From Podarcis liolepis (lineage: Eukaryota), in NCBI GenBank assembly GCA_965112155.1, contig OZ218099.1: 64,000 nucleotides of DNA, one strand, 5' to 3'. A program made the translations under genes and the position numbers. The notes under the pieces were generated by a model that made no database searches, was not told the DNA's origin, and was given only the letters and a program-made list of their open reading frames with translations. How positions within the stretch are numbered: position 1 is the stretch's first letter; each line of letters opens with the position of its first letter. Shown in pieces: positions 39,839-64,000 of this stretch.

Positions 39839-41022
39839 CTTCATTGAGGTACAGAGAACCTTGGATTTAGAGTGTGGTAAGAATGTGCTCCTATTTTTGC
39901 ATCCTTCCCACAGTCTGGCTCTGCTGTTGTGTTTTGGGTTTGTAAGATTAGAAGAGTAATAGCAAGAGAACCCATGTAGCTAGCAGAAGGCTCTAATACT
40001 GCTGTTCTTCAGAGGCAGAATATAGCTGGAAGAGACTTTTATCATGAAATCTGGGCTCTTCCCCATTCTAGGCAACAGTGTCTTTCAACATTGTGTAGCG
40101 GTGAAATGTTTCTTGTTTCTCCAGGAATTGGGGGGGGGGGGGCTTTTGTTTTTCTTTTCTTGTGTTGTCATGTTGGACATGGTATTTAGAACCTCTTCGG
40201 GATATTATCCTTGCACCAGAACAACAGCTGGTCTTATCCAATGGCCTTCTCTTCAACCAACTTCTGTTGAAGTGCCAACTCCTATTGGTTGAACCCTTCT
40301 CTCTCAAATGTAAGCAAATACAAGCCTTGAAGTTTCACAGAGCCTTTCCATTGGGAGCAGCTTGCTTACTGACAAGTCACTCCTCTGCCACTGTTGTTAC
40401 GTAGATCCAGTTCTCCAGCAGCAGCAGTCTGTGTTTGCCTCCTTTCATCAGGATTCTTTTAATCTAAGATAGCCTTAGTACTTGCATTCTCTGATTTCTG
40501 CTGTGTAAAGGGGACAGTGCTGCTGTCATTCTTTTGCAGACATTCACAGTGACTGATTTGAATTTGCATGGCAGGTCTGGAGGAGAGCCAAGAAACGGAG
40601 ACTCATTAGGTTGAATGCCAGCCATTTCCCTTGTTTGTTGAACAGGCAGCAGTAGACGTGACAAGGATAGGATGCTATACCAGTGTATTCCCTTCTGCCT
40701 GCTAGAGGAACAGCGGTCAGTCAGTAAGAAGTGGACAACAAGATTGGGTAAAGCAAACTTATTTAAAGGTCTTAATCCTGCTGCCCAGTCAGTCAGATCC
40801 TTGCCATCATAGTTCAGTTACAGCTGTCATTGGCAGCTCCAGTACCTCTTCGGCCACTGTGTCAAGTCTTCAGTGAGTATACTGGCTGAGGGTAAGCAAT
40901 AGCTTTTCAGAGAACAGGAGGCAGCATTTTGGAGTGACCATTGCCTATATGTCATACCCTCTTCTTCTGATCTCTGGTCAAACTAGTTTTGCAGACTTTG
41001 TAGCATTTCAAGCAGTCTAGGG

Positions 41023-41558
41023 CAGTGTTTCCCAACCGGTGTTCCGCGGCACACTACTGTGCCGTGAGACATCGGCTGGTGTGCCGTGGGAGGGAGGCGG
41101 GCGAGAGGCGGCGGCGGCGAGGATCCGGCGGGGGTGGGGGGAGCGGGGGCCGTCGCGCGCAACCGAACTCACTTGGCGCGCTGCCGGCTTGTCCTCCTTC
41201 AACCCGGGTCGGGCCAGGCCTGCTCACGTCCCCGGATCCCCTAGCAGCAGCCGCACGCTCTCCAAAAGCGCAACGCTGCGCGCAACCGCTCGGCCAGCTG
41301 GTGCTCTGCGACTCCGCCCTTTCCCCTCCCAGCGCCGGAGGGTTCGCGCGACCGCAGCTGTTCCCTTTCGCAGCGCGCGGGAAACAATTCCAGGCCGATT
41401 GCCTTGTGCCGAAAAGCACCGCCTCTCCTTCCAGCTCAGGCCCGGGCCGCCGGCTCCCCGAATGACGTCACGGGGGCGGGGCTTTAATGGTGGTGTGCCG
41501 CGAGATTTTTTTCCGGTAAACAGGTGTGCCGTTGCCCAAAAACGTTTGGGAAACACTG
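41023..41558. mobile_element. hAT-Charlie-type non-autonomous transposon (536 bp) with a CpG-rich interior
   Basis: TIRs CAGTGTTTCCCAA / TTGGGAAACACTG; perfect 8-bp TSD GTCTAGGG (41015-41022 and 41559-41566); subterminal TGTGCCG repeats. Confidence 0.92.
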
Positions 41559-44500
41559 GTCTAGGGGAAGTTGAAGCAACCTCGTAGCAGAAGAAACACT
41601 AAATATGCCCATTTTAATGTGATCTCTGTAGAAACAATGTTCATTATAAGGAAATGACACTCTTTCAGAGCCTCTTCTACCATTAGGCTAAGTGGGTATA
41701 CTTCATCAGAAAGCAGATTTTGGGTGGCCTGAATTTGCAACTAATTTTTACTTCTAATTTATTATTGTATTTTGACTGCCAAGTAGAGGTGATTGTAGGA
41801 TTTTGTGTCTCTGGTGAAAAAAATAACTTTGTCAGCCTTGGGTACTGCACACTTTGTTTGGGTTGGAGGGTATCTGCTGTTCCACCTCAGGCAGCAAAAT
41901 AGCTTGTGCTGAGAGAAAAAAATATTTTGTTCTTATAAAAAATAAATGTCCCCTTGGGAGTGAAATGGGCTAGAGCAGAAGATCGGGTCTAGTCAGCTTT
42001 ACTCCTGCTTGGGCTTGTAGGGGACTGTAGGAAGCTGCCTCTGTCAGGAGTTAGACTCCAAATTGAATAAACAACTTTTCCCTTCTCAGCAGGGCTACCT
42101 TCCTCCCCACATGTTGTTTTGTGCTGTTGTCAAGCTGCCAGTGTTAGTAGCATTAAAAAAGGGGGCGGGGACTGCTTGCATTGCTCCAGAGAAAGAATAA
42201 TCCGTACACAGCAGCTATCTATACACTGGTGGAAGGATGAAGAGTATCTTGACTTATGAACAAGGCAGGACAGGACAGGGTGCTGTTAAGCAAATGACTA
42301 GAGGAGGTCCTCCCACAGGATTTATGTGACTAAACTGAGAAAAGGAAAGGGGATTTCCAAGGAGATGGGATAATAGCCAGTTATTCTCAGGATCTGGTGA
42401 GACTCCAAGGATGAGTCAGCTACATGAACTAATAGAAACATATCGGTAGGCAGTCTGAGTGAAGCCATTTCCTTGTCTTATTGAGAGAGATGAGCCCAGC
42501 TGCTCACCCTCAACCTTATCATGTGTTGCAGTTTAATGGGAAATGAAAAGCTCCTCCACCATATTCTGTCTACCAAGGTATTTCTTACGTATACTGACTA
42601 TGCTAAGACTGCCTGTTGAGATCAGATAGATGTTCAGGAAACAATTCATCCTGGATGCTGCACCATTCTTTGTACCCACCTTACTGGCAGCTGCTGTTTT
42701 CAGACTTGGATTGTCACCTGCATCTTTCATCTTGTAGTGAGCTCTTCACGGTACCGCTCTGTCTGGCACAAATTATTTTACTAGCCCTGGAAAGATTGCC
42801 CCGTGATCTCTTGCTTCCCTAGGAGTCCATGTTCTGTCTCACTGGAATTTATTCAGAAACATGCATCTCCCCACCACCACCTCATGAATAGAGGATGTTC
42901 ACAGTCAGGGGCACCTCTTAAGAAGGAAGCTATGTACCTCAGCACCCCCCCAAAAAAAACCTATTTCCTGCTGCCTTGCAGAAAAATCATTGATCTCCTA
43001 TGGAGAGAACACACAGTTCTCTTTTATCGCTGGATATGAAGATGCTGTATTACAGGAAAAAACTTAGCCCTGCTCTGTGGGAAACCACCCTCTTATCCCT
43101 GTTCTCTTTTAAGTGGCAATCTTGTTACCTGGTTGAGCCATAGCATATTGTAGCCATTGTGCAAATGCTCTGGAATCTGTGCTTACACTTCAGGCACCTG
43201 CATCAGACTCTGGAAGTCTGGGTGTCTTGTTACGTATCAGTGTAAGTATGCCAGAGCCTCTGTATACATGCATTCATCAGTATTACTTTGTGAACCCTTA
43301 GTAGTATTTTATCTGGGTTTTTCAGGCTCTTGGTGACTGGCAAAGGCTCCTGCTAGATGACCTTGTATAATTTTACTCTACCAGAACAAATTGTTGTTAT
43401 TCCTACTTGAGCCCTTTATAAAGTTGTGATCTAGTAAGAAGAGGTATCTAACATATATTTGGGAACAGTTTGCATGGTTATTTGAGTGTTTTTACACTTT
43501 ATGTACTAACTGAAATCATATCACATGAAAGGTTGAGGAGAGCAACACCAATTGCATTAAAGGTTTGTTTGAAGGCCACGGAATGTACTTCAATCAATCA
43601 ATTGGCCTCCAGCACAGCTTCTGCACCATTTCTCACTAGGTAGATCATGACTATATTCTGTGTCTCTTCCTGTTTTTTCACCCCAAGCAGGCCTTGAATT
43701 CTCTTCATTAGAATATTTGTCACTTCAGGACAATGGTGGTTGAATTTCCTCCTTCCTCAAAAGAGTATCGTAGCTGCAGAGAGGTTGCAGCCTGGGACCC
43801 AAGTATTGGGACCAGTGGGACCAAATGCAGTAAGATTCCAGAGGAGAAAAAGTTTACAGCAGCCACCTGAGACTGTGAAATTGACCTTTCCTGGAAATTC
43901 TCTGGCCTGGAAGAATGAACTTTGATGTTAGACCTTTGAGAATTACAGATATTTGAACAAGTGTTTGTAGCAAAGTCCAGTATCAAAGCTGCTACTGTTT
44001 TATTTGCAATGACAAACTGGAATCAGAAATAATATGGAATGTAGACAAATATATATTGGCCTCTTGTCTCTTTAATTTTTTAAGTACAGTAAACACGAAT
44101 CTTTCCCCGTTCTTGGAAGGGCTGTTCATAACTTGCTTCCTTCCACCAATTATTGTATTGTATTGTGTTGTGATTTCAGAATTTGGGCTCTTTCTTTCAG
44201 GAAGCTACTTCCACACTGGAAATATGCCAAAGACAAGTTGTTCAAAATGAGTAATCAACATTGATTTATGAATGTTTTTGCCCTTTTACACAGAAAATAG
44301 GGATATGTGAGGAGACCATCTTTCCCTGCCACTATTTTCTATTTTCTATGAACAAAATTGTTCATGGGGCTTTCATAAAGATTCCAAGCAAGAGCTCTCT
44401 TTTCATGACACTTTTCAAATTCTATAAATCATGTACTAATAAAAAAAATCCAAAGCTTTACATATAGTATGAATTTTATAACTTGTGAGCATTGCCATTG

Positions 44501-45149: not shown

Positions 45150-45825
45150 TTCGTAGTGAGTAAGATTGTCTTCCATAAACACGGTTTTAACAGTGAGTCC
45201 GTAAGTGACTGTGGAGGCCAATTCTGGATCCACACGTCCTTCCACAGCGGGGACATAGGTTTCTGGGCGGGAGTTGATCACGGTGTGAATTTGCCAAGCG
45301 TGCCTTCCTCTTAGCACATTTCTCCCTTGCGTCCTGAGTTCGAGTGTCTTCAAAGCCCATGACACCTTTGGTAAAGGCTGTTCTCCAACTGGAGTGCTTG
45401 CAGGCCAGTGTTTCCCAGCTGTCAGTGTTTATACTACATTTTAAAAGATTTGCCTTGAGACAGTCTTTAAACCTGTATTGTTGACCACCAGCATTACGCT
45501 TTCCATTTTTAAGTTTGGAATAGAGTAGTTGCTTTGGAAGACAATCATCAGGCATCCGCACAACATGACCAGTCCAACAAAGTTGATGTTGAAGAATCAT
45601 TGCTTCAACACTGGTGATCTTTGCTTCTTTCAGTCCACTGGCATTAGTTCGCCTGTCTTCCCAAGTGAAGTGTGAAATTTTTCAGAGACACCGTTGATGG
45701 AATCTTTCGAGGAAGTGGTCCATGTTTCACAAGTTTACAGCAAGGTTGGTAGTACAATGGCTTTGTAAACAAGCATTTTCAAACACTCTGAACTTCAATC
45801 GGGAGAAAGCTGCACTTGCAGCTTA
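45150..45825 (-). mobile_element. RTE-clade LINE 3' fragment (ORF C-terminus with C2H2 finger)
   Basis: WTGHVVRMPDDCLPKQLLYS...CPRCGRTCGSRIGLHSHLRTH, typical of the RTE-clade ORF end. Confidence 0.85.
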
Positions 45826-46819
45826 GGGTGACTAACACTGCCCTAATACCAAATACAGGAATATGGGATTAGAAAATGATCATTACAAGTCAGTCCATCT
45901 CTGATGCTTAAGGTAAAACCTCTGCCTATCCCAGGAATCTTTGTGCTTTGCTTAAGGCTTGGGACTGATCAGGGTTACAAGCCTGAGAGTTACTCACAAG
46001 TGGGGAAAGCAGCCATTGCTTATTTATTCCAGAATTCTAGGTGTGTAACCTGGAACCTGTCTGCAATCCCTGTCTTGGAACTGAGTCTACAAACTAACCC
46101 CATAACTACAACATCAGTCTAATTTTGGTACTTCTGTTCCCCTGCGCTGCCCCCTGCATTGTGCAACACCTTGCCTGTTGAAGAGCGCTGGAGAACTTGA
46201 AAACTTGCTACACCTTTGTGACACTTGGCCCCAACTTGCCCAACTAAGATAAAATTTGTCATCTGTGAGATAAGCAATTGTTTCCTGGCAACAGATTGCA
46301 GAGTTTTTATTAGCATAGAAGAAAATACAGTAACAGCTTGTAGAACTAGCTTTAAAGGTTTGGAGAACCAGTTCTAAAACACGAGAGCTAGTGTTTTGAA
46401 GGAGTCCTTTGTTTACCCTTAGGTTTAACTCTGTCACCAATAAAATATAATAACGGCACTTAAGATAGTATGAGTTTTAGTCAATTGCTGTATTAAATCT
46501 GAAGAAATGTACAGGAGAAAATAGTTGTAAAGAACATGTACTGGTTTTTAGATTCTGCATAAATGTGTTGCAGCAGACATCGTCGCAGAAGATTGCTAAA
46601 TTGTTATATAAGGCAAGGTTACTTACTTTTCAGGACCAGAACAAGAGGCTATCTATTGATCAACTGCATAGAAAAATGAGCTTTTTTTTAAGCTTGCAAC
46701 CAAAAACAGCATAAAAAGTAATGACATGGAATATAAAAAAATACATAATGTCCATAATTTTGTTGTAAATCGCTTTGGGTTACCTTGGACAGGATAAAAC
46801 GATGAACAAATTTAATAAA

Positions 46820-46820
<1 letters not shown>

Positions 46821-46880
<60 letters not shown>
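46821..46880. repeat. (ATT)n microsatellite (retroposon tail)
   Basis: Direct observation. Confidence 0.9.
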
Positions 46881-46881
<1 letters not shown>

Positions 46882-47230
46882 CTCCACTTCAGTATTGGAT
46901 AGAAGTGAGAACAGCCCTCCTTCCCAGAGAACTCAACAGGCCAGAACCATTTCTACAAGTACTTAAATTTAAATAATTATTTTAAACAGCTGACTGATTT
47001 AAGCAGGGACATATTGTAGTCTGCCAAATCTTTTTAATCACATAACTAAGTAATTGACTAAACATTGCAGCTCTGATAATAGTTGCTGAGTGCCTATAAG
47101 AATTAGGTGATGTATAGAAACTTGTTTTTAAAAAGACCAAGCTCCACACATTGGCAAGACTTTTATTAGGACTGACAAGAAACGTTGCAAAATGTGCGCA
47201 TCCGTAAAGTTCTCCAGAATGTTTCGTCAG

Positions 47231-47835
47231 TGTTATAAGAAAAAAACTGCTCTTTTCCCCTTATGGGGTATCCAAGCGCCCATATAGAGTCCTCTTTTTA
47301 GGTTCTCTATCGGGAGGAGAAAATAACAGAGGCCAACCAGAGAATATTGAGAAGCAAGGCAGCTAGTAAGCTTGATCTTTATTAAAGCTGCTGCAACATG
47401 GTACTTCACAACCACATGCAGGAGAGAGGAGGGACCCCGAACAATGGCGTGCAAGCCCTTATATAGACGTTTTAAATTGCCCACCTTCAAACTCCAGACC
47501 ACCCCCAGAAACATCATACACACATCACAGAAGAGGCGGTCTAAAACAGAATCCTGAGTGTGTTGTTTATCTCCTGTCCGGCAAGTTATCCGATTGCATT
47601 ATCTGGGTTTTGGCCATTCTTTTGTTATTATAACTACTTAATTCCTGAATCTAGGTCACAGGTCACAGGCTCACCCTGTTCATATCTTGAATGTGCTCTT
47701 AAGGCAGGATTTGTGAGGAAAGAGACATTGGGGAGGTTTCCCACTTTGACCTTGCATAGAAATATTTGAGGTCCATTTGTTCAGGACTTTTTTTGTGGGG
47801 TTTCAGACATGTGGTTTATATATACAGTTATGAAC

Positions 47836-47895
<60 letters not shown>

Positions 47896-47913
47896 ACATT
47901 AAAATTCTTATAA
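47231..47913 (-). mobile_element. Solo LTR, family shared with 54164-54867; contains a (TA)n expansion at 47839-47892
   Basis: 5-bp TSD GTCAG (47226-47230 and 47914-47918); aligns in reverse to the 54.2-54.9 kb copy; minus-strand TATA and AATAAA; 5'-terminal TG is missing. Confidence 0.85.
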
Positions 47914-50900
47914 GTCAGGCTGGATGTTACATGAAGCAAAAGTTTGTGAGGCAGATAAGGGGGCACCCCCCCAAAGTCCCAAAATTGGGCTAACTGTTGA
48001 AGTCTTGAAGCCTGAAGATGGAGACCGCAGGCTGGCGGAATTACGGTAGTCCCTGCTAGGTGCTTGCAGGTATCAGGTTTCACCCAATGGCTAATCTCCA
48101 TTTTGGAAAAACCATAAGGCCTGCCTTTTATTTTTCCCAATTTGAACCATAAAATGGTGATTTTCTTGAGTACCCCTAAACATTTTTTAGGAAAAAAAGC
48201 ACTAAGTATTTCTATTGTTTTACTTGGTATTGTGGGGTGGGGCGGGGGGGGAGCTGCGCCTCTGCCCTCCCCCTTTAGCTACGCCCATGGCCTGTGTGCT
48301 ATTTTGTGACATTTTGGTAGTCCTAATAAAAGTATTACCCAAAGGTAGATTCTGGCTTTTTTTTTTTTTACCAACATGGTTGTCTTGGGATTTGTGTTGA
48401 TTTGTTTTGTTTCTGATGAACTTGACAAAGGACAGAACGTTCTACAATTTTAGGCAGCATTCTAAAACAAGAGAATCCTGCCTAGAATTGTACAGTGTTC
48501 TGTCCTTTGTTACGTATTTTCCCATGGATGTCTGAACACTGAGCTGAAACCACACTGAGCAAAGCCTGAGTAGGGCAATAATTTGAAGCAAAATAAGAGA
48601 GATGCTGCCTCTTCTGAAATTCAGTTAATCCCCAGGGACTGGAAATTGGACAGCTCTAAATTAGAATATATGATTACTCTTTATGCTGACATTGAGGAAT
48701 TAAGGTTTAAATACTGTTTATTATACCTTAATCACCTGCCTGTTGTGATTTGACTGTTATCATTCACCTAAAATTAAAGCAGGAAAACTCGGGATTGTTA
48801 TCTTTTGTCCACCAGAGGGAGTAAGTATCACACCTGCTGAAACTTTGCTCAAGTGCCCAACAGCCTGGAAGTAGATGAGAGTGATTTGAATAATGATGCC
48901 GGCTGAGAGTCTGAAATAGCTTTTATGTAAAGACTGTATCTTTATGTGTAAAATTACGGGTTTGAAAGTCATGGAGGGACTGTAGAATGAAGTTAGTTTT
49001 CGCCTTTGGCTACAAAAAGCCTTTCCAGCTTTATTGGTGCTGTTAATGAAAGGCTCACCAGTTAAGCATACTTAAAGTGTTTTTCATTCCCATTATTCCA
49101 CATGTTTCATTCCAGCAATATCCAATCAGCCTCTTGGATGCCGTCTCTACAGGGAAGGGCATCCTGCAAGGACTTGTTTGTCTTGTAACCTACTTGTAAA
49201 TGCCGCTTACACTTGTAACTGTGCTGACATTGTGTGTGCCCCCGCCCCCCCGGCCCCTGCCCAATGTGATTCCCTGGGACAGGGTGGGAGGGCAATGCTG
49301 TTAACTGTATCCATCTCCTATGGGAAAGGAACCAATTGTGAAATTCTAAAAATATAGAAAATATCTAATGGTTTCCAGGGTAATAGGTGACCATGGTAAC
49401 TAAATGCTAGCTTTGTGATCTGATGGAGGACAGTTAAAAAAAGAAAGGAAAAGGCATAGCCAATTAACTGTGCAGAAATGTTTCTGGGGGAAATATTTTT
49501 GCATTAACCCTGCAGGTGCCAGGGAGGTAGCATTTATGACATGCTCAGGTTGAAATATTGTGATGCGGTGGCTTTAAATTGGCGTCTCGGTGTGTGTGAT
49601 GGCAGGCTGTTTGCTATGACGTTGGCTGGAGAGATTTCTGCTCTTGGATCATAGCACCCATTTAAAGCTCGCTGTTGCCTCTCAACCTTTTGTTGATGCT
49701 GTATACACTATACAGACACACCTTTCCAAGCAAAATTCAGAATTTTCTTATTGCATTGGAGAGCAATAGAGAGGAACATAAATTCTCTTAACAAGATCAC
49801 TGTATTGTCGCTGCATTCCTTTCTGACCTAGATATTTATTGAGAACAAGCAAAAGAAAATTCCAAACCACAATTAGGAGATGCAGTTTGCTATAATTTCC
49901 TGCACCACTAGAGATACGTGCTTGCATAAATGACACTCTGCTTCTCTGAACACTTCTGAGCAGGGAAGCAAAGATCAGGCTTTTTTGAATAGGAATTTTA
50001 AATAAGAATGTTTACTCTCTTGACCCACTTCTCATAAAGCTGCTGTAAAACATGCTGATAAACTACCCCATGAATCTGAAACCAAATGATTTCAGATTTG
50101 TGGAGTAGTTTATCAGTTTACAACCGTCCTCTAGCATCTTTGATGTGATGCACCTTAGGGCTGCTTCTGATGTTAGTTTTCTCTTTCTTATACTGAAAAG
50201 CAGTGTGTGGGGTCAGATAGAAAATGGTCATAGATGCCCATCTTCAGACAGAATGGGAATGCTGAGATAATGATCTCAGGGGCAATTCTAAGTGACAGCA
50301 ATGCAAAAGAGGTGCCGGAACTCAGTACCGGTGAGTTCCGACTGGGGAAAATAAGCCTTGCGTGGCGAGTTCCCGCCCCCCACTAGGATAAATAAAGACA
50401 CGAGACACCATAATTTAAGGTTAAATGGGCGAATTAGGCCACAACTTTATTGAATTCAGGAATGAGAGGCATTGGCTTAGGCATTGGTCCTATCGACTAT
50501 CCGGCTCCAGCCCATTTGCTGGAGACACGGGGAAGGGTTAACACTATATCGGGGGGGGGGAGTCTCCTGCTGAGGCACGTCGACTAGGAGCTCCCCCTGG
50601 TCACCGCTCGGGGGGCGTGCCTTTGGCCCTCACCTCCATAGGCTTCGGACAGGGCCACGCCCCCCGGAGTCCTTTAACGGACCACCCTTCTGACATTGTT
50701 TAAAACCACAGTTTTCCTCCCAGTTCCCTCCATCCTTTAGTCAGACTTCTGCCATTGTTTTAAACCACTGCTTTCCCCCTCTCAGTGGTGCAACCTTCCT
50801 TCACGTTTGCTCCTTTTACCCCGCCGTGACTTCATGCAAATCCAGGACTGTGATGCAGCACGACAAATCCTCCAATAGAGGCTGTGTGATGACATTCTTA

Positions 50901-52410
50901 CATTTTTATTAGATAAAAAGAGATAAAATAATAAATACTATGTGTTTTGCATGAGATGTTAGATTACTAGACCCCTTAGCTATAAGAAACACACCTGTCC
51001 ATTTAAATATCTGAAATACAGACAGGTATAGTCAGATTTGGCTAAATGCTGTAGTTGTTATATGTAAATATTAGAGATTCACTAGTGTTCACTAATTTAA
51101 ATGGGGGGGGGTTGGAAAATCCAGTCCACATTTCCAGAGTTCTTCTATAGGTCTGAAGAGGAATTCCTATATCCTTCATTAAACATGAATATTCTGTGTA
51201 CAGGAACAAAAAGGAACACAGAAGTAGAGGACATATTTTAAACTGCTTCCTTTCAGTGTCCATAATGGGGGGGGGGGTGTCTTTGCCATAGCCAGCCAAA
51301 GAGGAAGCAAATAGATTTGTGTTTTGTGTGTTGCGTAAGATGGCGTGCTGGGCTGCCACACTGCGAGTCAATGGATGGAAGTTACTTAAAGGCATCTTGG
51401 GCACTTTCTCTTGATTGAGCTGGAATTCCTTGGCTTTGAAATTCAGTCTAGGGTGCTCTCTATGAGCTTGGCTTTCCCCTAGAAGCTTGTATAGAAGTGG
51501 AGACCCTTTCCCAACCTGCTCTTCTCTGTCACTGACTGTTGCCTCATGTCCTTTCTGTTGGATGTGCCAGCTTCTCCCCTCCACAGATGTTCTCACTGTA
51601 AGGAAGCAGATGTGCAGATGTAAAAAACAGAATTCACAGCAATCGCTCCCAGCTGAGAGAGGCAACCTGCTTAAGGGAGCAAGCCAATGCTTTGGTGCAT
51701 TTCCTCCTGGCAAGTGTGTTAAGTGGGTGCATTTTTAATGCATTGCATTCATGGGTGTGTACATTTGGTTCTGCGCATAGCACAGATGCACACAGCCCCA
51801 ACCCAAAAGCATATCCTTTTTTTATGCACACATTTACTGGCATACTATAATGGAATATCTTTGGACATTCAACATCCAGGGACAAAACTGTCATGACTCT
51901 GTATTGAGCAAGATTAGAAAACTGTAAAAAAAAACAACAACAAACCCCCACCCCCATTTGCTGTTGGACTCCAACTCCCATCAGTCTCAGCGAGGGACAG
52001 GGGAAAAATTTGGTTCTGCTTACATTTTGAAGCCAATTTTATCAGATTTGCACTTTCCAGAACAATATGAGAACCAAAACACAGCCATCCTTCAAAATTA
52101 GCACTTATCCAAATTCTGCCATGCACTTCTCCAACCAAGCAATGTTTATAAAAATGCATATACTAGGAGGAAATGCATCTTAAAATATATTTGTGAAAAT
52201 AGAATACAAAAATGCTTTATATTAAGTTGCTTTCAAAAATGTGAAAATTGCAGGTACAGATGCGTGTGTGTTTTTAGGAGAGATTCGCACTAAAATACTG
52301 AAACATTTTCACAAGGACTTAAAAAAACAAACCCACAAATATGGAGAACTGAATTTAAGATTAGAAAAATGAGATGCTGAGAGAACTGAAAATGACAGAT
52401 CCTTCCATAC

Positions 52411-52665
52411 TTGGAGAACAGCCTTTACCAAAGGTGTCATGGGCTTTGAAGACACTCGAACACAGGACGCAAGGGAGAAACATGCTAAGAGGAAGGCACA
52501 CTTGGCAAATCCACACCGTGATCAACTCCTGCCCGGAAACCAATGTCCCCACTGTGGAAGGACGTGTGGATCCAGAATTGGCCTCCACAGTCACTTATGG
52601 ACTCACTGTTAAAACCATGTTTATGGAAGACAATCTTACTCGGCTACAAGAGATCGCCAAAGAAG
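52411..52665 (+). mobile_element. RTE-clade LINE 3' fragment (same family as 45150-45825)
   Basis: Near-identical reverse complement of 45150-45392, including the zinc-finger-coding part and 3'UTR. Confidence 0.85.
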
Positions 52666-53140
52666 GCAGAGGCATACTTAGGGGTTGGCGAAACCAGCCC
52701 CCACCGCATGTTTTGTGCCAGAAAATCAAGATGAATGCTCAATAAACAGGTTGTCAGAAGTTGGGAGTCCTTTCCTTATGGTAAATGGTTTGACCAGATA
52801 ATACATGGCCCTTTCTACTTAAAAGGTTCTACTTATGCTTTATCAGAACATTACAACATCTCTTAACATCTGCATTCAAAGAACATTTGCATGACTGTGG
52901 GTGAGTGAATGAGCACATTATACAAGCAATTCTGAGTTACTGAATTTGTTACAGGCCTGTTGAGTGCTTCTGTGGAGAAAATTACTCCTGTTCCTAATAC
53001 ACTTATCATTTATTGCAAATGTCTGGGGCAAGATGTTGGTATTTTCTACTACATTTATTCTTTATTTGACAGATTTGGTATCATATGTGGTATAGATGCA
53101 TCTGATTTTTACCTTCCCTATTCACATTCTGAAAATTGCT

Positions 53141-53387
53141 CCTCCTAAGCCAACCTAGCAGTTCGAAAGCACGTCAAAGTACAAGTAGATAAATAGGTAC
53201 CGCTCCGGCGGGAAGGTAAACAGCATTTCCGCGTGCTGCTCTGGTTCGCCAGAAGTGGCTTAGTCCTGCTGGCCACATGACCCAGAAGCTGTATGCCGGC
53301 TCCCTCAGCCAATAAAGCGAGATGAGCGCCGCAACCCCAGAGTTGGCCATGACTGGACCTAATGGTCAGGGGTCCCTTTACCTTTAC
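53141..53387 (+). mobile_element. Sauria SINE (5'-truncated)
   Basis: gccaacctagcagttcgaaagcac...agataaataggtacc...gagatgagcgccgcaaccccagag...ggggtccctttacctttac with the (ACCTTT)n tail. Confidence 0.85.
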
Positions 53388-54163
53388 GCTTATCAGAGAA
53401 GCACAGAACATGAATGAAGGAGTGTAAATTGAGTGAGGTGAGCCCACTGTGTAAGTGCACTCACAGCATTTTGAGCATGTGAACAACCTGCTCCCTAAAA
53501 TCAAGCTAAGAGTAAAGCTTGTTATTATGGGTCTCAGCAGAGGCTGGATTTGCACAATGCTGCTTAGCTGGTCCCTTGTGTCAGTCATGAGACCTTTTCC
53601 TTAACTTCTTGGCACATGCGTGTTTTTCACATTATCCATTCCACAGCCAAGTGGCAGCCCACATTCTGCCCCCCTCCATTTAATTTTGATTTTGCCAATA
53701 GTGTGTTAAGGAGAGAAGGGAATACAACATAAAATCATGTTACCCAGCTGTGGATGTACTGAAGTGTATTGTGTGGGCCTTTCCCTTCCCCCCTGTGTGT
53801 GGTGATGTTTTCCTGGGTGTCGTCTATCACCACACCTTCTACTTCCATATGGGAGATACTCCTTGATGGATTATAGGTGGGTCTAGTCATGACACATGCA
53901 TTTTTTTTAAAATAACCCATTCTTTTGTACAAGTCTGGCATGTCAGAAAATTTGTTTCTCAGATTATTATTTTTAATTAAATTGGCTGCCCACCCACGTA
54001 AATAATGCTTCTAAAAAACATATCAAATGTCATCTATTTATTTATTAAAGGAATTTGTACACCGGCTTTGCTGGTGTCCTAAATAGGTGCTTAGTCTGTC
54101 TACTGGGTAATCCAACACTGGGGAGATGGCATGTATCATCAGCTGTTTATCACCCTCAGGTAC

Positions 54164-54867
54164 TGTTATCAGAATTTTAAGGTCATATATTTTTTTTAAA
54201 ATGTTCATAACTGTATATATAAACCACATGTCTGAAACCCCATAGACAAGGTCCTGAACAAATTGACCTCAAATATTTCTCTGCAAGGTCAAAGCCAGAA
54301 ACGTCCCCGTTGTCTCTTTCCTCACAAATCCTGTCCTCACAAATCCTGCCTTAAGGGCACATTCAAGATACGAACAGGGTGAGCCTGTGACCTGTGACCT
54401 AGATTCAGGAATTAAGTACAGTAGTTATAATAACAAAAGAGTAGCCAAAACCCAGATAATGCAATCAGATAACTTGCCAGACAGGAGATAAACAACGCGC
54501 TCAGATTTCTGTTATAGACCGCCTTTTCTGTGATGTAGGTATGATGTATCTGGGGTGGTGGTCTTGGGCTACTACACCCCTTCTTTGATGTCTGTATGAT
54601 GTTTCTGGGGGTGGTCTGGAGTTTGAGGATGGGCAATTCCAAAAGTCTATATAAGAGCGGGCACACCTTTGTTCTGGGTCCTCCTCCTGCGTGTGGGGGA
54701 GCATCCTGTTGCAACAGTTAATAAAGATCAGGCTTACTAGCTGCTTTGCTTCACAATATTCTCTGGTTGGTCTCTGTTATTTTTTCCTACTGATAGAGAA
54801 GCTACAAAAGGACTCTATATCTTGGGTACCCCATGAGGGGAAAGGAGCAGTTTTATCACTTATAACA
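54164..54867 (+). mobile_element. Solo LTR (704 bp)
   Basis: TGTTAT...ATAACA termini; 5-bp TSD GGTAC (54159-54163 and 54868-54872); TATA box (ctatataag near 54647) and AATAAA near 54720. Confidence 0.9.
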
Positions 54868-56740
54868 GGTACCTTGACTGTAAATCTTTCTGCTGAGGGA
54901 AGAGAAGGCAGCATCTCAGCTTAAGAGAAAAGCTCTTCCTGTAGATTCATTTTGGATCAGTTGGGAAGCCACTACCAGCCCCCCAAAACAAGCTGGCCAA
55001 TTTTCAAAACATTAACTTCCCCTCTGTTAGCCATAGAAAGCTGTTTAGCAGGCAAGCTAAGTAACTGCAATATTTATAGATTCAATTTCCACATCAATTT
55101 CCCTGATAGGCAAATGCAGGCACAACGTCACTCCTATTAGGAATGCAGGCGGCAAACAGACTGTTGCTATGGCGATTTTTGCCATCACAGCAAAGGCAGC
55201 CCGTGTGCACTGCTTGTGTATGAAGCTTTCTGGCAAAGCAGCTAGTCTTAATTAATCTGAAAAGGCGACACATTTAATAAATGGCAGGAGCAGTGATGGT
55301 GTTGGGAGGGAAGTATACTGAGTCAAGCAAACTTCTCTTTTGAAAAGGAATTGACCTTGCTTGGAGCCCAGAATTTCTAGGAATGGACAGGCCTTGGACA
55401 AACTCTGTGTACCAAATGTTGAAAACAGTTACATATCCGAGCTTGCCAAGGGGAATCTGTGAGTGGCTCTTTACAAGATAGAGTAATTGAAATGTGTTTC
55501 TTCATTCTTTATTTATTCATTCACAGTACTTCTATGCCACCATACCAATGAGGTTCTCTGAGTGGCAAACTTAATTTTAAACATTCAGTATAAAACAGTA
55601 AAAAAATAATCCAGTTCCAGTCAATATCTTTGTGTGGGGCTAGCTGCACCGTGAGAGAGAAAGGAGGCATGCAAACCAACCAAATCAACCTTTTCTTCTT
55701 ATGGCCACCAAATGGATATCTCCCTGGCCAGGGGACCAACTCCTGGGGGCTGAGCCCTTTTGGGGCTCAATATTTTTGCGGGGCAGGAGCCCCAATGTTC
55801 AAAAGGGGCAGAGAAGTCCAAACATGGAGCTGAGCGCAGCACAACTTCTCCTTCTCTTCCTCTTCCTGCCATGGTAAGAAAGGAGCAGGTAAGCAGCTCC
55901 TGGCCGTGGCAGCAGGAGGAGGAAGAGCAGCCGACCATTGAAGCCATGCTGCCCCCCTGATTGGCTCCTCCCAATGTCCTGATATCACATGCATGACATT
56001 GTCCCGCCCCTTCTCCCTCAGAAGTTGCCGCCTCTGTCTCTGGCATGCACCCACACCCACTCCTAAGGGATGTTTCCAGCTTTCTAGATAACTGTTCCAG
56101 CTCTTCTAGCTGTTAGATTCACCAGTTCCAGCTTTTCCAGCTAACTGCTCTCTTTTACATCCTGACTTATGTATCATATTTTCACTCCCCTTCCCACTCA
56201 TTAGCCAATCGGTAGAGTCCTGGATAAGTTTATATTTCTCCTCAATTGCCATATTCCGAGGATGACTCTTTGACCTTCCAATGCAAAACTTCCTCCAGTG
56301 AGCATTTCTGACTGTGGTACAAAATAGAACTTACCGTATGTGCATTTTTAACCTTCCTGTGAACATTTGACCCTCCTGCACATTATATCATCCTGTGCTG
56401 AATAACCTTTAAAGCAAAGTCAACAATTTCATAAGAACCAAGCAGAATGCAAAACAGTGGAACAATTTCATTCCTGAACACCATATTTTGGACTAGCTGG
56501 AATTTCTGAAGCACTTTCAAATACATATACAGTGTATTGCCTTCATCAAAATGGGGTACTTGAACAAGGATTATGGTAGCCAAGTTATCTCTGTCTGGGT
56601 AGAGTCACAGTTGGTTTGTAAGCCAAAGCTGACAAAAAGTCATCTGTGTCTCCAGTGACAACACTGGGTCAATTAGTACTATTCTCTATTTCACAGTGAT
56701 GTCCAATGAGCCTCACCAACTTGGGAGAAATCCAAAAACA

Positions 56741-57040
56741 TGTCAGTGTTTGTAAAAAGCAAAAAAAAGAAGGAAAGGGTTCTGACCTCCCTTTATCTTC
56801 TCAGTCTCCTTGTCGGCACAAAAAGAGTCCACGGGAATATCCTTGCAGAGTTTTATTAAAAGTCTTTGTGCAAAACACAACTGAATAACTATACACACCA
56901 GCACCAACCAACCCAAACACCAGCCACACCAACAAACTAACATCTCTCACTTATATATATACAGATTGATGCAGACCGCTGAGTCATGCTGACCCAGCTT
57001 TATTCGCATTAAAGAAACAGCGGCCATTTTAGCCGTGACA
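56741..57040 (-). repeat. Copia 3' LTR
   Basis: 300 bp, identical by eye to 61471-61770; minus-strand AATAAA at 56852-56857. Confidence 0.96.
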
Positions 57041-57055
57041 CCCCTTCTGTTTCTT
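57041..57055 (-). other. Polypurine tract of the copia element
   Basis: Minus-strand AAGAAACAGAAGGGG abutting the 3' LTR. Confidence 0.85.
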
Positions 57056-57094
57056 AAATGCGAAAAACCCCAACAGAAACAATACATACATACA

Positions 57095-60000
57095 TTATAT
57101 ACATAAACCCAGTTTTGTCATCAATTCATTATGGCATGTTGCTGGCAAAGGCTTGGTAAACAAATCAGCAATATTATCTTGTGACTGACAATACTCCAGT
57201 TTGATTACCCCATTCTGTACACAATCTCTCACATTCGCATGACGGATAGCAATATGTTTTGATGCGGATTTCATTATTTCCGAGCCCGCTAATGCAATGC
57301 ACGATTGGCTAGCTTCATACACTTGGATAGGCAAATCTACTTTACAATCTAGATCTTTTAGTATCTGTATAAACCATATGATTTCATTGCATGCTAGCGA
57401 CAGGCTCCCATATTCTGCCTCACAGGATGAGGTCGCAACAAATCCTTGTTTCTTTGACCTCCATGCAATTATGGAATTAGCAAACATCATAACCATTCCA
57501 CTTGTAGATTTTCTAGTAGCTACACAGCTTCCCCAGTCCGCATCAACAAATACTTCTAGTTTTTCATCTTGTGTACTAGATATCTTTAAACATACATTTA
57601 ATGTCCCCTTTAGATATCTGATAAGCCTTTTCAAAGCACACCAATCGGCAGTACTGGGTTTAGATACATGTTGGCTCAGAACATTTGTAGCACATGCAAT
57701 GTCTGGCCTTGACCACTGGCTTAAATACAACAGTGATCCTATTTTTTGAGTGATACAACTCAGGCTGATCAAATTCATCATCACACACTGTCTTTGGGAA
57801 ATCTGGTGTCATGGGAGTCTGAACTGGCTTGCAGTTTTCCATGCCAAACTGCTCTATTAAATGAAGAATTTTCTCTTTCTGGCTCAATAGGAAGCTTCCA
57901 TCTGCTTCCTGCCTTACTTCTACTCCCAAGTAATTGCTTACAGGCCCCAAGGCTTTAAGCTTAAACCTCTTTTCCAGTTGACTTGTGAGCTTCTGGATCT
58001 CATCTGTGGAACTCCCTCCTACAAGCAAATCATCAACAAAGACTAAGAGCATTAGATATTTGTTGCCTGTCCCCTTGGTGTACAAGCATGGATCAGCCAC
58101 ACTCCTTTTAAAACCAAGTTTTACAAGGGCTTCATTTAAACACTGGTTCCAACACCTTCCACTTTGTTTGAGACCGTAAACAGCCTTTCTCAAACGCCAG
58201 ACTGCACCATTCTCCTCTTCAACCCCAGGGGGTTGTCTCATTAACACTTCATGGTCTAAATTTGCATGCAGATATGCAGCATCAACATCAAAATGGTGCA
58301 CTGCTAGTTGTCTTACAGCAGCAATGGAAAGCATTAAACGAAAAGTTTCACTCTTTACCGTGGGAGAAAACACTTCATCATAACTCTCCCCTTTAATTTG
58401 AGTGAACCCTCTGGCTACTAATCTGGCTCGAAAACGTGGTTCCCCAGATGCAAGGGTTTTCCTTTTGTAAACCCACTTGCATGACACCACTCTGCCACCA
58501 GGTGGCGGCATTATGACCTCAAACACTTTGTTACGTTTAAAAGAGTCCATTTCTTCTTTCATAGCTTGTTCCCACAAAGCACGTTCCCCAGGGGGTAAGT
58601 CTAAGACTTCATTATAACTTTGTGGTTCCACACAACTCACATTGCATACTCTCACTCCTCCTAGGGTCAAACGCTGAGGAGGTACACCCTTGTTTGAACG
58701 CTGGGAGCGCCTAGGCACAACTACTTCTTCTTCCCCCCTTATCTCTGGCTCTTCTTCCTCTTCCTCTAGAGAAGTATTATCTATTGCCACATCTTTTGGG
58801 GAAATCTGTGCCTCCTCCTCATTCTGCTCCTGTGTTGCCAATGGCTGAGAAGAAGCCTCTTCTCTTACTTGCAGGGGCAGTAGGCAATCAGGGTTGGCAT
58901 GGATCGCAGTCCATCTGTCCTGGTCAGCGAAGTCTGCGCTTCGTGACAGAACCACGCGTCCTGGGCGTAAATTGAAACGCCACCCTTTGCCATAGGACTG
59001 GTATCCCACAAACCGCAGTTTCTGCGCTCTAGCGCCCCCTTTCTGGCGCTGAGCTTTGGGAATGTTTACATGTGCCCAAGAACCCCAATTATGGAGCATT
59101 GTCCACTCTGGTTCTTTCCCAAACAATACACGATATGGAATATCTTTTATAGAGCTAGACCAGGTTCTATTAATCAAAAAGTTCGCGGTCAGAAAAGCCT
59201 CGCCCCACAGCCTATGGTTGTGGCCCAATCCTGCATCCACTAGCAGGCAGTCCTTTACTGACTGTATTACAGCCCCACGTCTTTCACACAGACCATTTTC
59301 AGCAGGGCTATAAGGGTTAGTCAAACGGTGAGTGATCCCCTTACGTCGCAACCATGCCCCAAATTGTTTGTTCAGAAATTCTCCGCCCCTATCTGTTTGC
59401 AGCTGCACAACAGGCCGAGCGAAGAGCTTTTCAGCTTGGGCAACCCATTCTCTGAATGTGGGGAAACACTCAGATTTCTGCTTTAACAAAAACAGCCAAC
59501 TAAAACGTGATTTGTCATCTATTACCAGAAAAGCATATCTGGCGCCCCCTTCAGTCTTCTGTGGAAAAGGGCCTATCACGTCACAATGGACAAGTTCTAA
59601 AACCTCTTTAGATACTCTGTCGCTTTTAGAAGCCACAGGCTTCCTCTTAGATTTGGCCATTTTACATACATTGCAGTCTAGGAAACAGTTACAGCTATTT
59701 ACTTTTAGGTTCTTGCATACCTTTTGCATTTCTGAAAGCACACGGAAATTGGCGTGACCCAGTTTTCTGTGCAGTTGATGTACACACCCCTTATGAACTG
59801 GCAAATTATCCTGAACCACCTGGGCTGCTTTAACAGGCTTGTCCTGCATTACATATAACCCATTTTCCAACTTTGCATGGCCACATACCTGAGTTCCATT
59901 CTTTATCAGACAGCCATCCTGCGTGAACTTAACACTATACCCTGCATTAATCAAACAGCTTACAGACAGTAAACAATAGTCCAAACTGCTGACAAACAGA

Positions 60001-61064
60001 GTCTCTGGTAGAGTAGTGTTCAAGCACTGCAGGAAACATGTTCCCTGGCCATCAATCTTGCTTCTACGACCATCAGCAAGATAAATTGAGTCTTTTCCAT
60101 CAGCTGGCTTCTCCAGGGTCTTAAAGTCCTCCCGACTATTGCAGATAATCCTGCTGCTGCCAGAGTCCAGCAACCATGTTCCTCGAGGTATCTTTCTCTC
60201 CTCCCAAGAAAATGCAGACACAAACTGAGCAGAACGCGTGTTCTTCTTCCCTGAAGAGAACCCCTTCTGCTTACGTTTCTGCGTTGATTGCTGTCTCTGC
60301 TCCACGTCGTCTCCTGGAAGTCCTGCCCTGCATTGACGTTGGAGATGCCCGGGTTGGTTGCATCTATAGCATCTCCTCACCGCCATGGCCAAGTCCAAAC
60401 CTTGGTGTTGCTCCATTGGCAGATTCTGCTGCTGGCCCCCTCGGCTGTAACTCCTCCGCTCTTGGAGTTCAGCCTGTCTATCTGACCTTCTTTCTGCTTC
60501 TTCGGTCAATCTGCCAACCACATACTCAAGGGTCAGATCTCGGGGACGCATACTCTCCATGCTGTTAATCACAGGCAACCAGCTTTCAGGCAAACTTGAA
60601 AGGATAATGTATGTTTGGTCAGTCTCATCATAATGCTTACCTCTCTGCTGTAGTTGAAGAAACAGAGATTTCAGCGTTTGAAGATGAGTTGCCAAACTCT
60701 CACCTTCTTTCATAACAGTCCTGAACAGCCTTCTGGTCAGAGAAATGATAGTTCCAGCAGTTTCTCTGACATGCATTGCCCTTAATAAATTCCAGCACTC
60801 AAACGCTGTGCTGGCATTTGCTATATGCAATAACTGAGAGTTGCTCAAACACAGCATAATTTGGGCACGGGCCCTTTCATCTAGCCGTTTTTTCTCAGCA
60901 GTGTCCCGTCTCAAAACCTCAGTTTCAACACAGTCCCGTAGTCCATCTCTCCTTAACAACTGCTGCATTTTAATTGACCAACTCAGCCAGTTGCTTTCTG
61001 AGAGAAGTTCAAAAGGGATGCCTCCCCCAATATTTACAACTTGGGAAGACTGGAAATCTGCCAT
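57095..61064 (-). CDS. Copia gag-pol polyprotein (about 1322 aa if the single +1 frameshift at 57742-57747 is removed)
   Basis: First ATG at 61064 in strong Kozak context (gagATGG). Motifs: gag NWLSWSIKM, CCHC knuckle CYRCNQPGHLQRQC, protease LLDSGSS, integrase HRKLGH...CNVC and D(HCDVIGP)-D(TDRGGEF)-E(NGLCER), GKGW, RT ARLVARGFTQ / YGLKQS / FVDD, RNase H DADWG / EAEY / ADLFTK. Split between ORF-track entries 57660..61214 and 57095..57784. Confidence 0.92.
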
Positions 61065-61456
61065 CTCTGCTGGTGCTTGCTGAGCCCCTTCTGTGGGGTC
61101 TCCAGCAATCTCTCCTGACTCTCTCTTTAGAGTCCAACTGGATGGTCCTGGCTGGCACTCACCGGCTTCTAGCTGCTGCCTCTGTTGACCCTCAGGTCCC
61201 GCCTGGCTCTGCAACTGGTGTAGCCGCTCTGTGAGTCGCCTACTGTGGTCCTCTAGCAGTTCAAACTGTTCCAGTAGCCGATGCTGAGTGCTTTCCTGAT
61301 CCTCAGATCCTAGCCGCTCCAGCGTCGCTGCAGACAGTTACAGCTTGCCACCAACTGCTCCAACGCACAGCCACTGTCTCCGTACACCACCAGGACTCAC
61401 CAGCTCCTTGCTGAAATGCTGTTAGTCGTTTTGCACTCTGCACATGCTCAGAAACA

Positions 61457-61470
61457 CTGGGCCCATAACC
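61457..61470 (-). other. Primer-binding site complementary to the anticodon stem-loop of initiator tRNA-Met
   Basis: Minus-strand GGTTATGGGCCCAG directly after the 5' LTR is the reverse complement of tRNAiMet CTGGGCCCATAACC. Confidence 0.92.
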
Positions 61471-61770
61471 TGTCAGTGTTTGTAAAAAGCAAAAAAAAGA
61501 AGGAAAGGGTTCTGACCTCCCTTTATCTTCTCAGTCTCCTTGTCGGCACAAAAAGAGTCCACGGGAATATCCTTGCAGAGTTTTATTAAAAGTCTTTGTG
61601 CAAAACACAACTGAATAACTATACACACCAGCACCAACCAACCCAAACACCAGCCACACCAACAAACTAACATCTCTCACTTATATATATACAGATTGAT
61701 GCAGACCGCTGAGTCATGCTGACCCAGCTTTATTCGCATTAAAGAAACAGCGGCCATTTTAGCCGTGACA
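61471..61770 (-). repeat. Copia 5' LTR (promoter)
   Basis: Minus-strand TATATAA (61681-61687), ATGACTCAGC (61708-61717), AAAATGGCCG (61751-61760), AATAAA (61582-61587). Confidence 0.96.
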
Positions 61771-62908
61771 AAACACTCCTGCAAATGATCTCAGTGACTG
61801 AGCAGGGATATTTAGGTGGGCAGTAAGGTAGACTGGACCTAAGTTGTTCTAGGCTTTGCAAATCAGTACATAGACCTGGAACCTGGCTCAGTAGTAGATG
61901 GGCATTGGCCTAATATTCATGACATCCTTCCCATGCCATTTTAGTTGTGTGAATTAGTAGTGACTGACACTTCATGGTGTCTCACCTCCTAACAGACTCC
62001 ATTCTGATGGTCCAAGGAACAATGCACAATGGATGTAGTACCAAGGGAGATGTCTCCCCTGAGTATCCTACACAGTGTAGCCAAAGCCATCTCTAAGGAA
62101 GATCTATATCTTTCCGAAAAGATGCCTAAAAAGAAAAAGAGAGAGCAATAATTCCACCAAATACTGAACAAGTGTTGATGCCTTTGTTGATAGGCGATGA
62201 ACTGGTAGTCTTCGGTACAGTGTACTGTACCTTGTTTTCTCATGTGTTCTGCTTTAAGGCACATGAGATGTTCATATAGCCCAAATTATTTTGACTAGTC
62301 TGTAGGAAGTGTTAGATTTGGAAGATTAGTATTGATCTAGTTTGTTCCCCAGCAACACTGCAGTTGCAGCAATTCTATGAATAGGAAAGAAAGCAAAGGT
62401 CATATCGTGTGATTGTTTGACTCTAAATATAAGATCTTACCCTTCATGCCTTTGAGTTCTCATTTTTGTTGCCAATACAATGATACCTTCAAAAGACGAA
62501 TGCACTATGGTGATTTGTAGGTTGATCTGTCACATGAGCTGTTTGTTTCATGCTCTATGTACAGCATTTATACTGCTATCTTGTTGAGCTAGTAAGCAGT
62601 TTCTATTTTGGTCTCCTGGTCTCTTGACATCACCATCTCTTAGCCTTTCGCTTCCTGTGTAACTCTCTCACAATGAGATTATTTTGCTAATCCCCCAGAT
62701 AGCAGCATATTCCCCGCCCTTTATTCCCTAAAACTTTCCAATGTACCTTGAGTGCAGATCCTGAAATCAAGGAGATTCCGGCCAGCCACAGGATCTGCTT
62801 CCCCCCACTCCTTTGCTTTGCCTTTCTGTGCTCCAAATTAGCATATATATTCCATTAATTGAATTCCAAATTGATTTCCATTCTTTTTTAAGCATTACAT
62901 AAAAGAAT

Positions 62909-62993
62909 GTGGAAGACAGGAGTGCCTGGCGTGCTCTGGTCCATGGGGTAACAAAGAGCCAGACACGGCAAAACGACTAAACAACAACAACAA
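62909..62993 (+). mobile_element. Bov-B (RTE) 3'-end retrocopy with (CAA)n tail
   Basis: gtggaagacaggagtgcctggcgtgctctggtccatgggg...gactaaacaacaacaa; TSD ACATAAAAGAAT (62897-62908 and 62994-63005). Confidence 0.85.
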
Positions 62994-63088
62994 ACATAAA
63001 AGAATAAACAGTTTATTCTGAACGCAACACTTTGCTGCATTTATCTTCACTTGCCAGGGCTGGTGTGTGCCCATCGGAGAGATGGACA

Positions 63089-63670
63089 CAATAGGAGTAT
63101 AGCATCTAGATCAAGGGAAGTAATAGTGCCACTGTATTCTGCTCTGGTCAGACCTCACCTGGAGTACTGTGTCCAGTTCTGGGCACCACAGTTCAAGAAG
63201 GACACTGACAAACTGGAATGTGTCCAGAGGATGGCAACCAAAATGGTCAAAGTCCTGGAAACGATGCCTTATGAGGAACGGCTAAGGGAGCTGGGCATGT
63301 TTAGCCTGGAGAAGAGGAGGTTAAGGGGTGATATGATAGCCATGTTCAAATATATAAAAGGATGTCACATAGAGGAGGGAGAAAGGTTGTTTTCTGCTGC
63401 TCCAGAGAAGCGGACACGGAGCAATGGATCCAAACTACAAGAAAGAAGATTCCACCTAAACATTAGGAAGAACTTCCTGACAGTAAGAGCTGTTCGACAG
63501 TGGAATTTGCTGCCAAGGAGTGTGATGGAGTCTCCTTCTTTGGAGGTCTTTAAGCAGAGGCTTGACAACCATATGTCAGGAGTGCTCTGATGGTGTTTCC
63601 TGCTTGGCAGGGGGTTGGACTCGATGGCCCTTGTGGTCTCTTCCAACTCTATGATTCTATGATTCTATGA
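63089..63670 (+). mobile_element. Young CR1 LINE, 5'-truncated (ORF2 C-terminus, 3'UTR and octamer tail)
   Basis: Uninterrupted peptide [28 protein letters not shown]...RLRGDMI...[15 protein letters not shown]; (ATTCTATG)n tail. Confidence 0.93.
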
Positions 63671-64000
63671 GGACCATCTCTGGAATGAATATACCTACCT
63701 CGCAGGGGTTGCAGCAACAATGAGGTTCTCAGAATCTTAGGCAGGAGCTGATACTCTGAATGCAACAGGTGGTAGGTTCTGCTCTAGCGATCAGGTGGTC
63801 AGGCTCTTGGCAGTTAGTCCAATCTAAAGACCTAATACAGTGGCTATTGTTGGCATCTCTAGTTGCTCTGAGATGAAGCTGTAGGCTTGAATCCTGAACA
63901 CTTCACTAGCCTGAAGGCCTCAAGACAAGCCTTTATTCAAGGAAGCCCAAGACATTTTGGCCCTTGAGGCAAACCACAAAATGGTGCCCCACACCAACCT

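Follow-up and report, generated by a model that had tools for sequence, protein, structure and literature searches.

Which tRNA primes a retrotransposon whose primer-binding site (PBS) lacks the usual TGG? This question was raised by a Ty1/copia LTR retrotransposon located on the minus strand at 56741-61770 of a stretch of Podarcis liolepis DNA (the window, i.e., the whole 64,000 nucleotides analyzed; Table 1). The element shows the features of Ty1/copia (Pseudoviridae) elements, namely TG...CA LTRs, a PBS, a polypurine tract, a target-site duplication, and gag, protease and integrase ahead of reverse transcriptase (RT). The domains of the 1225-aa frame are arranged in the Copia order (Copia gag, zinc knuckle, protease, integrase, SH3-like, RT of the RVT_2 type), the Pfam matches following one another as PF14223, PF22936, PF00665 and PF07727. 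The pol frame of this copy is broken near the 3' end of the 1225-aa frame, between RT and RNase H. The RNase H region of the 237-aa frame, for which no Pfam match was obtained, was assigned from its position, its motifs and its resemblance to the corresponding part of other Copia elements. Of the 120 RT relatives that were listed, a Copia protein of a lacertid lizard had the highest identity (54%).

Table 1. Features of the retrotransposon in the window
Feature	Position	Strand
5' target-site duplication (minus-strand reading TGTTT)	61771..61775	-
5' LTR, 300 nt, TG...CA, identical to the 3' LTR	61471..61770	-
PBS abutting the LTR, complementary without mismatch to nt 26-39 (anticodon arm) of host tRNAiMet	61457..61470	-
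TGT 3' of the PBS, possible G-U wobble partners, not significant	61454..61456	-
Stop-to-stop frame, 1225 aa, Copia gag to RT	57660..61337	-
237-aa second frame with the end of pol (RNase H region)	57095..57808	-
Polypurine tract adjoining the 3' LTR	57041..57055	-
3' LTR, 300 nt	56741..57040	-
Target-site duplication, 3' side	56736..56740	-

The absence of any difference between the two LTRs loosely bounds the age of the insertion at less than 1.7-5 million years when rates between 3e-9 and 1e-9 per site per year are assumed. RNA reads of two bulk runs covered the internal region of the element at a depth of about 1-9 per bin. The first mate was found mostly on the plus strand, which corresponds to element sense provided that the libraries are stranded in the usual way; these reads were mostly less than 99% alike to the window copy and hence derive largely from other copies. 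None of the listed holders was recorded as RNA, which speaks neither for nor against expression. Elsewhere in the window (45158-54808 and 62900-63700), inverted pairs of interspersed repeats were observed 6-7 kb apart, together with a LINE-like 3' end near 63050-63690, which we take to be of the CR1 type, and a G+C-rich stretch near 41000-41600 that may be a promoter island. A tRNA gene was not found in the window.

The 14-nt PBS, GGTTATGGGCCCAG, follows the CA of the 5' LTR without spacer. The window contains no second match with one mismatch or fewer (0.02 expected), and the chance of an exact 14-mer to any tRNA register at this fixed position is about 2e-7. The initial annotation had read it as a site that starts right after the LTR CA, lacks TGG and complements an internal segment of tRNAiMet, and had suggested an alignment to the tRNAiMet genes of the host. 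This alignment confirmed the reading: a tRNAiMet motif is matched by 12 host loci, 11 of which are called as tRNA-Met(cat) by ARAGORN, and the complementarity is exact over nt 26-39 counted from the tRNA 5' end, equivalent to 27-40 in standard numbering. The predicted duplex energy of the PBS was -27.8 kcal/mol with the tRNA 5' half as compared to -5.2 kcal/mol with the 3' 18 nt. The further suggestion that pairing extends through the following UGU by G-U wobbles was not borne out. These bases face G25, U24 and G23 as formal wobbles and the 17-mer adds one predicted pair, but the three bases performed no better than their own shuffles (p 0.33). Comparison with shuffles gave p 0.06 and 0.07 at 10 and 20 nt and about 0.025 at 30-40 nt, uncorrected over the five lengths compared, and the extension is not common to most other families with the 14-mer.

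Half-tRNA priming has been known since 1986, and the motif may well head many animal Copia entries in repeat databases. In Hemivirus, cDNA starts at the 3'-OH of nucleotide 40 of a half tRNA (PMC1181622, in part), and priming of this type is used by Drosophila copia and 1731, yeast Ty5 and Volvox Osser (PMC1181622, in part; PMC8515867); a revision of the classification on phylogenetic criteria is expected by the ICTV. The window element carries a PBS of the Hemivirus type, complementary to the anticodon stem-loop of tRNAiMet and ending at standard nt 40. Like copia, 1731, Ty5 and Osser, it thus combines Ty1/copia organization with an implied primer 3' end at standard nt 40; unlike these, it resides in a vertebrate host and is known here from genomic copies with captured primer, not from biochemistry. 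The mechanism class is therefore already known (Hemivirus type: copia, Ty5), and the element adds a vertebrate case. As judged from its sequence, this young Ty1/copia element with a PBS to the initiator tRNA anticodon arm is likely to prime from a 39-nt tRNAiMet 5' half, as Drosophila copia does.

Conservation of the site was analyzed genome-wide. The 14-mer gave 983 exact matches and the reversed control none. The first 45 matches listed were considered and 9-kb stretches, which all lie on contig C1, were taken for 40 of them; the five left out were members of two families already sampled. Copia domain matches were present in 34 of the 40 stretches, and 30 contained LTR pairs of at least 200 nt, 27 of them at least 99% identical. 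By LTR end, the stretches fell into 12 groups, seven with Copia domains; these seven families have the 14-mer in common and differ in the bases that follow it. The initial annotation had treated the site as special. Apparently it is not, because the half-tRNA PBS is the standard site of most Copia families sampled in this genome. The gap between the LTR CA and the 14-mer varied by family from 0 to about 5 nt (L043-L082), which implies different processing of DNA ends before integration.

Copies of the window family were picked by the leader downstream of the PBS; this gave 112 candidates, of which 40 were scored and the best 30, including the window copy, were used. The PBS was identical and flush with CA in 29 of these 30 copies, the 30th having one mismatch, and a TGG-type site was found in none of the 30. 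Genome-wide, the LTR end of the family followed by the PBS occurred at 102 places with up to one mismatch (92 exact), and the same LTR end followed by TGGTA had no match. Hence, the conventional site that had been named as contrary evidence did not turn up among copies of this family, and the proposal of Hemivirus-type priming gained support from the conservation of the PBS as well as from the capture copies described below. Eight exact copies of the family were observed clustered within 0.33 Mb (G000:C4:104.0-104.3 Mb).

The 14-mer might also be a relic, with priming achieved otherwise and the captures produced when plus-strand ends switched template to a free whole tRNA. Internal tRNA insertions such as the one at L258, described below, would fit this explanation. 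However, the 14-mer is exact across families whose RTs are about 40-54% identical and whose flanks have diverged, its place is next to the LTR end, and the elements lack any other PBS; we therefore regard a relic as the least credible of the explanations considered.

In plants, a PBS to half-molecule tRNA-Met is found in the lineages Osser, Bryco and part of Gymco-II, together about 2% of elements (PMC6317226, in part). As in these lineages, the half tRNA-Met PBS is a lineage trait in the lizard; unlike in plants, it is usual in the RT-bearing Copia families sampled here. Copia elements are abundant and young in squamates, and a survey of Lepidosauria reports Mtanga only (PMC11889832, in part); Mtanga-clade Copia elements are also found in amphibians (frogs) (PMC4131045, in part). 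Since only Mtanga is reported in Lepidosauria, the window element probably belongs, by host range, to the Mtanga clade. The available text of PMC11889832 contains nothing on Mtanga primers, with 0 occurrences of the word 'primer'. The GalEa clade was rejected as a candidate, the GalEa PBS (PMC3587641) not agreeing with the PBS of the window family. The literature searched, to which Repbase, GyDB and subscription papers did not belong, contained no description of this PBS in vertebrate Copia and none of primer capture there, as judged by titles, abstract openings or text passages. The available sections of PMC5941688, PMC12786077 and bioRxiv 2024.01.30.575011 hold nothing on this PBS, and one supplement of the tuatara paper, as far as available, gave no match for it.

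Sites with longer complementarity to tRNAiMet were searched with the start fixed at nt 39, and tRNA genes as well as a sister family (family B, see below) were excluded by the preceding base. Because of this fixed start, the search carries no information on the uniformity of the primer 3' end. It revealed 18 places, two of which are degenerate tRNA genes in a cluster and 16 of which lie outside tRNA clusters. The complementarity reached nt 1-3 at six of these 16 extended sites (0-2 mismatches), ended at nt 7-9 at five and at nt 11-17 at the other five. Eight of the 16 are located behind the LTR end of a second Copia family. Upstream DNA ties nine to families in which Copia domains were demonstrated; a further one is marked by an LTR pair plus an integrase match, two share one LTR-like end, and the remaining four are without such ties. 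Degenerate tRNAiMet copies were observed at L235, L236, L036 and L129; a tRNA cluster holds two of them, the 5' end of another is altered, and one resembles a processed copy with CCA. Locus L234 (G000:C2:37242661) has a 31-nt capture behind which PBS and LTR are repeated in inverted orientation; this is a fold-back product.

The only capture of the window's own family among the 16 sites is L216/L238 (G000:C3:113763572), with an RT identity of 99%, an LTR pair identity of 99.7% and its own target duplication. Behind its LTR CA, 39 of 39 nt are complementary to tRNA nt 39 to 1, and a 5-nt microhomology in gag marks the point, about 680 nt farther downstream, from which the element sequence continues. 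The last five of the 39 nt can be assigned to either partner, so that 34 to 39 nt are tRNA-derived. The polarity of the captured DNA implies that nothing but the tRNA can have been its template, during plus-strand synthesis. Most simply, we infer, it was copied from the primer while this was still joined to the minus strand; the captures look like fossils of the primer being copied.

Human tRNAiMet contains m1G9, m2G10 and m2G26, with G9 almost fully m1G (PMC7293042, in part). Stalling at modified G9/G10 would account for the end points at nt 7-11 if the lizard tRNA is modified as assumed from human; six captures pass G9, which is thus no firm stop. We propose that the freed anticodon arm of a tRNAiMet 5' half ending at nt 39 would pair with the 14-nt site and that the 3' end of this half would prime minus-strand DNA flush with the LTR end. 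In a normal round, plus-strand copying would end after about 14 nt, or the excess would be removed. In a rare round, plus-strand synthesis would run on along the attached primer and the product would be fixed. Such run-on copying would often stall near methylated G9/G10, or reach the tRNA 5' end, and the strand would then jump into the element at a short homology and thereby delete the leader.

Ty1 strictly inherits its PBS from the RNA and not from the primer, whereas retroviruses (HIV, MLV) copy the tRNA primer (PMC7472051, in part). As in HIV and MLV, tRNA sequence seems to be copied into plus-strand DNA here; this differs from Ty1, at least in faulty copies, and it differs from retroviruses in that the tRNA 5' half is copied and not the 3' 18 nt.

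The TGG-type tRNAiMet site occurred 110 times in the genome, and contig G000:C20 held 52 of the first 100 listed matches. A gag match was found near seven of 20 such sites examined. Nine long TGG-type loci proved to be LTR elements with gag and integrase-like matches, and none of the nine had an RT match. RT-less Copia-like elements of about 4 kb with gag/protease/integrase-like matches and a TGG-type PBS were observed at L224, L225, L226, L229, L250-L257 and L260 (e.g., G000:C1:59396211). Eleven long CCA-end matches to tRNAiMet were identified: eight stop at nt 40, one at nt 39 and two at nt 42 and 44. In the eight, complementarity covers precisely nt 75-40, which corresponds to the 3' half that a cut at 39/40 would leave over; the long matches in RT-less TGG-type elements share one flank and hence count as about one founding event. 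The matches ending at nt 42 and nt 44 lie in copies of half-PBS families. A 34-nt CCA-end tRNAiMet complement, not nt 39, is present at the LTR end of a half-PBS family copy (L259, G000:C20:13123261), and a 32-nt one was found inside a family B copy (L258, G000:C20:10189551). Both loci hold CCA-end sequence, which indicates that tRNA 3' ends are present where reverse transcription occurs. These captures, two events only, favor recruitment of the whole tRNA and a local cut over the import of free halves. Hence, we consider it more probable than not that the element recruits uncut tRNA and that cleavage at nt 39/40 takes place inside the particle or close to it. In Ty5, the tRNA cut has been attributed to host RNase P in a review (PMC5371799, in part).

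Alternatively, in line with the initial annotation, the primer could be a 5' half from a pre-existing germ-line pool of host tRNA fragments, which would set the transposition rate. The copia primer has been counted among tRNA halves in a review (PMC10275265, in part), and a free pool would fit every capture starting at nt 39. The near-identical LTR pairs of many copies show that the elements were active in the germ line or the early embryo during the past few million years; such heritable insertions imply that the primer existed in germ-line or early-embryo cells, and its origin in a host fragment pool does not follow. The CCA-end sequences in two half-PBS family copies, internal in L258 and at the LTR in L259, speak against free halves. 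Stress tRNA halves, furthermore, arise by cleavage in the loop; they do not reach 39 nt in length and have a cyclic-phosphate end that RT cannot extend without repair. A free pool as the source thus appears improbable to us.

The tRNA might also be uncut before priming, so that DNA would start as a branch from the 2'-OH of nt 39, or the cut would follow annealing. Plus-strand copying through the branch junction would leave identical captures, and it is evident from the CCA-end captures that parts of the tRNA 3' side were in these complexes too. We nevertheless judge this order of events very unlikely, because all 11 CCA-end captures extend at most one base into the 5' half, and copia and Ty5 are described with a cleaved tRNA and a 3'-OH start (PMC1181622, PMC10275265 and PMC5371799, each in part).

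A longer site is present in family B (L049, L055, L059 and 108 more), for which 111 matches at up to two mismatches, 74 of them exact, were obtained. Its fixed PBS of 30 nt is directed to tRNAiMet nt 39-10 and ends just before G9, a difference from the Hemivirus examples. One more complementary base (nt 40) follows the CA, giving 31 nt in all; the family B primer may end at nt 40, or the extra base may be a spacer. Family B is heavily recombined. A minor tRNAiMet isodecoder is represented by three of the 12 tRNA loci, and the matching PBS variant is found in nine family B copies; it makes up eight of the 11 single mismatches that are not CpG transitions (26 single mismatches listed). The nine variant copies do not form one clade (AU p 0.029 and 0.007; 37 of 39 rows, L157 and L170 dropped). 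In the control, other variant sites were clustered at only two of 29 (75 of 79 copies; L157, L170, L206 and L211 dropped as divergent). The tree argument for primer inheritance was therefore removed, the control sites being equally unclustered. A variant at a frequency of at least 8% is carried by 39 of 1657 non-CpG columns of family B, which corresponds to a coincidence of about 2%. The isodecoder-matching PBS variant is a hint of primer inheritance, and selection could also explain it.

A wider scheme can tentatively be put forward, although we hold it to be rather doubtful: squamate Copia particles might split tRNAiMet at nt 39/40, with the 5' half priming RT-bearing families and the 3' half priming RT-less Copia-like passengers, and the primer might be copied and inherited in each round, unlike in Ty1. 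If this were true, PBS variants would record the tRNA isodecoders and modifications used by the reptile germ line.

The capture copies add sequence evidence for the extent of the primer and a testable comparative signal; with about 1000 half-tRNA sites and captures in a vertebrate genome, a cheap comparative test becomes available in any squamate assembly. Furthermore, 3' tRNA fragments silence mammalian LTR elements at the PBS (PMC7472051, in part), and elements with a half-tRNA PBS would escape them.
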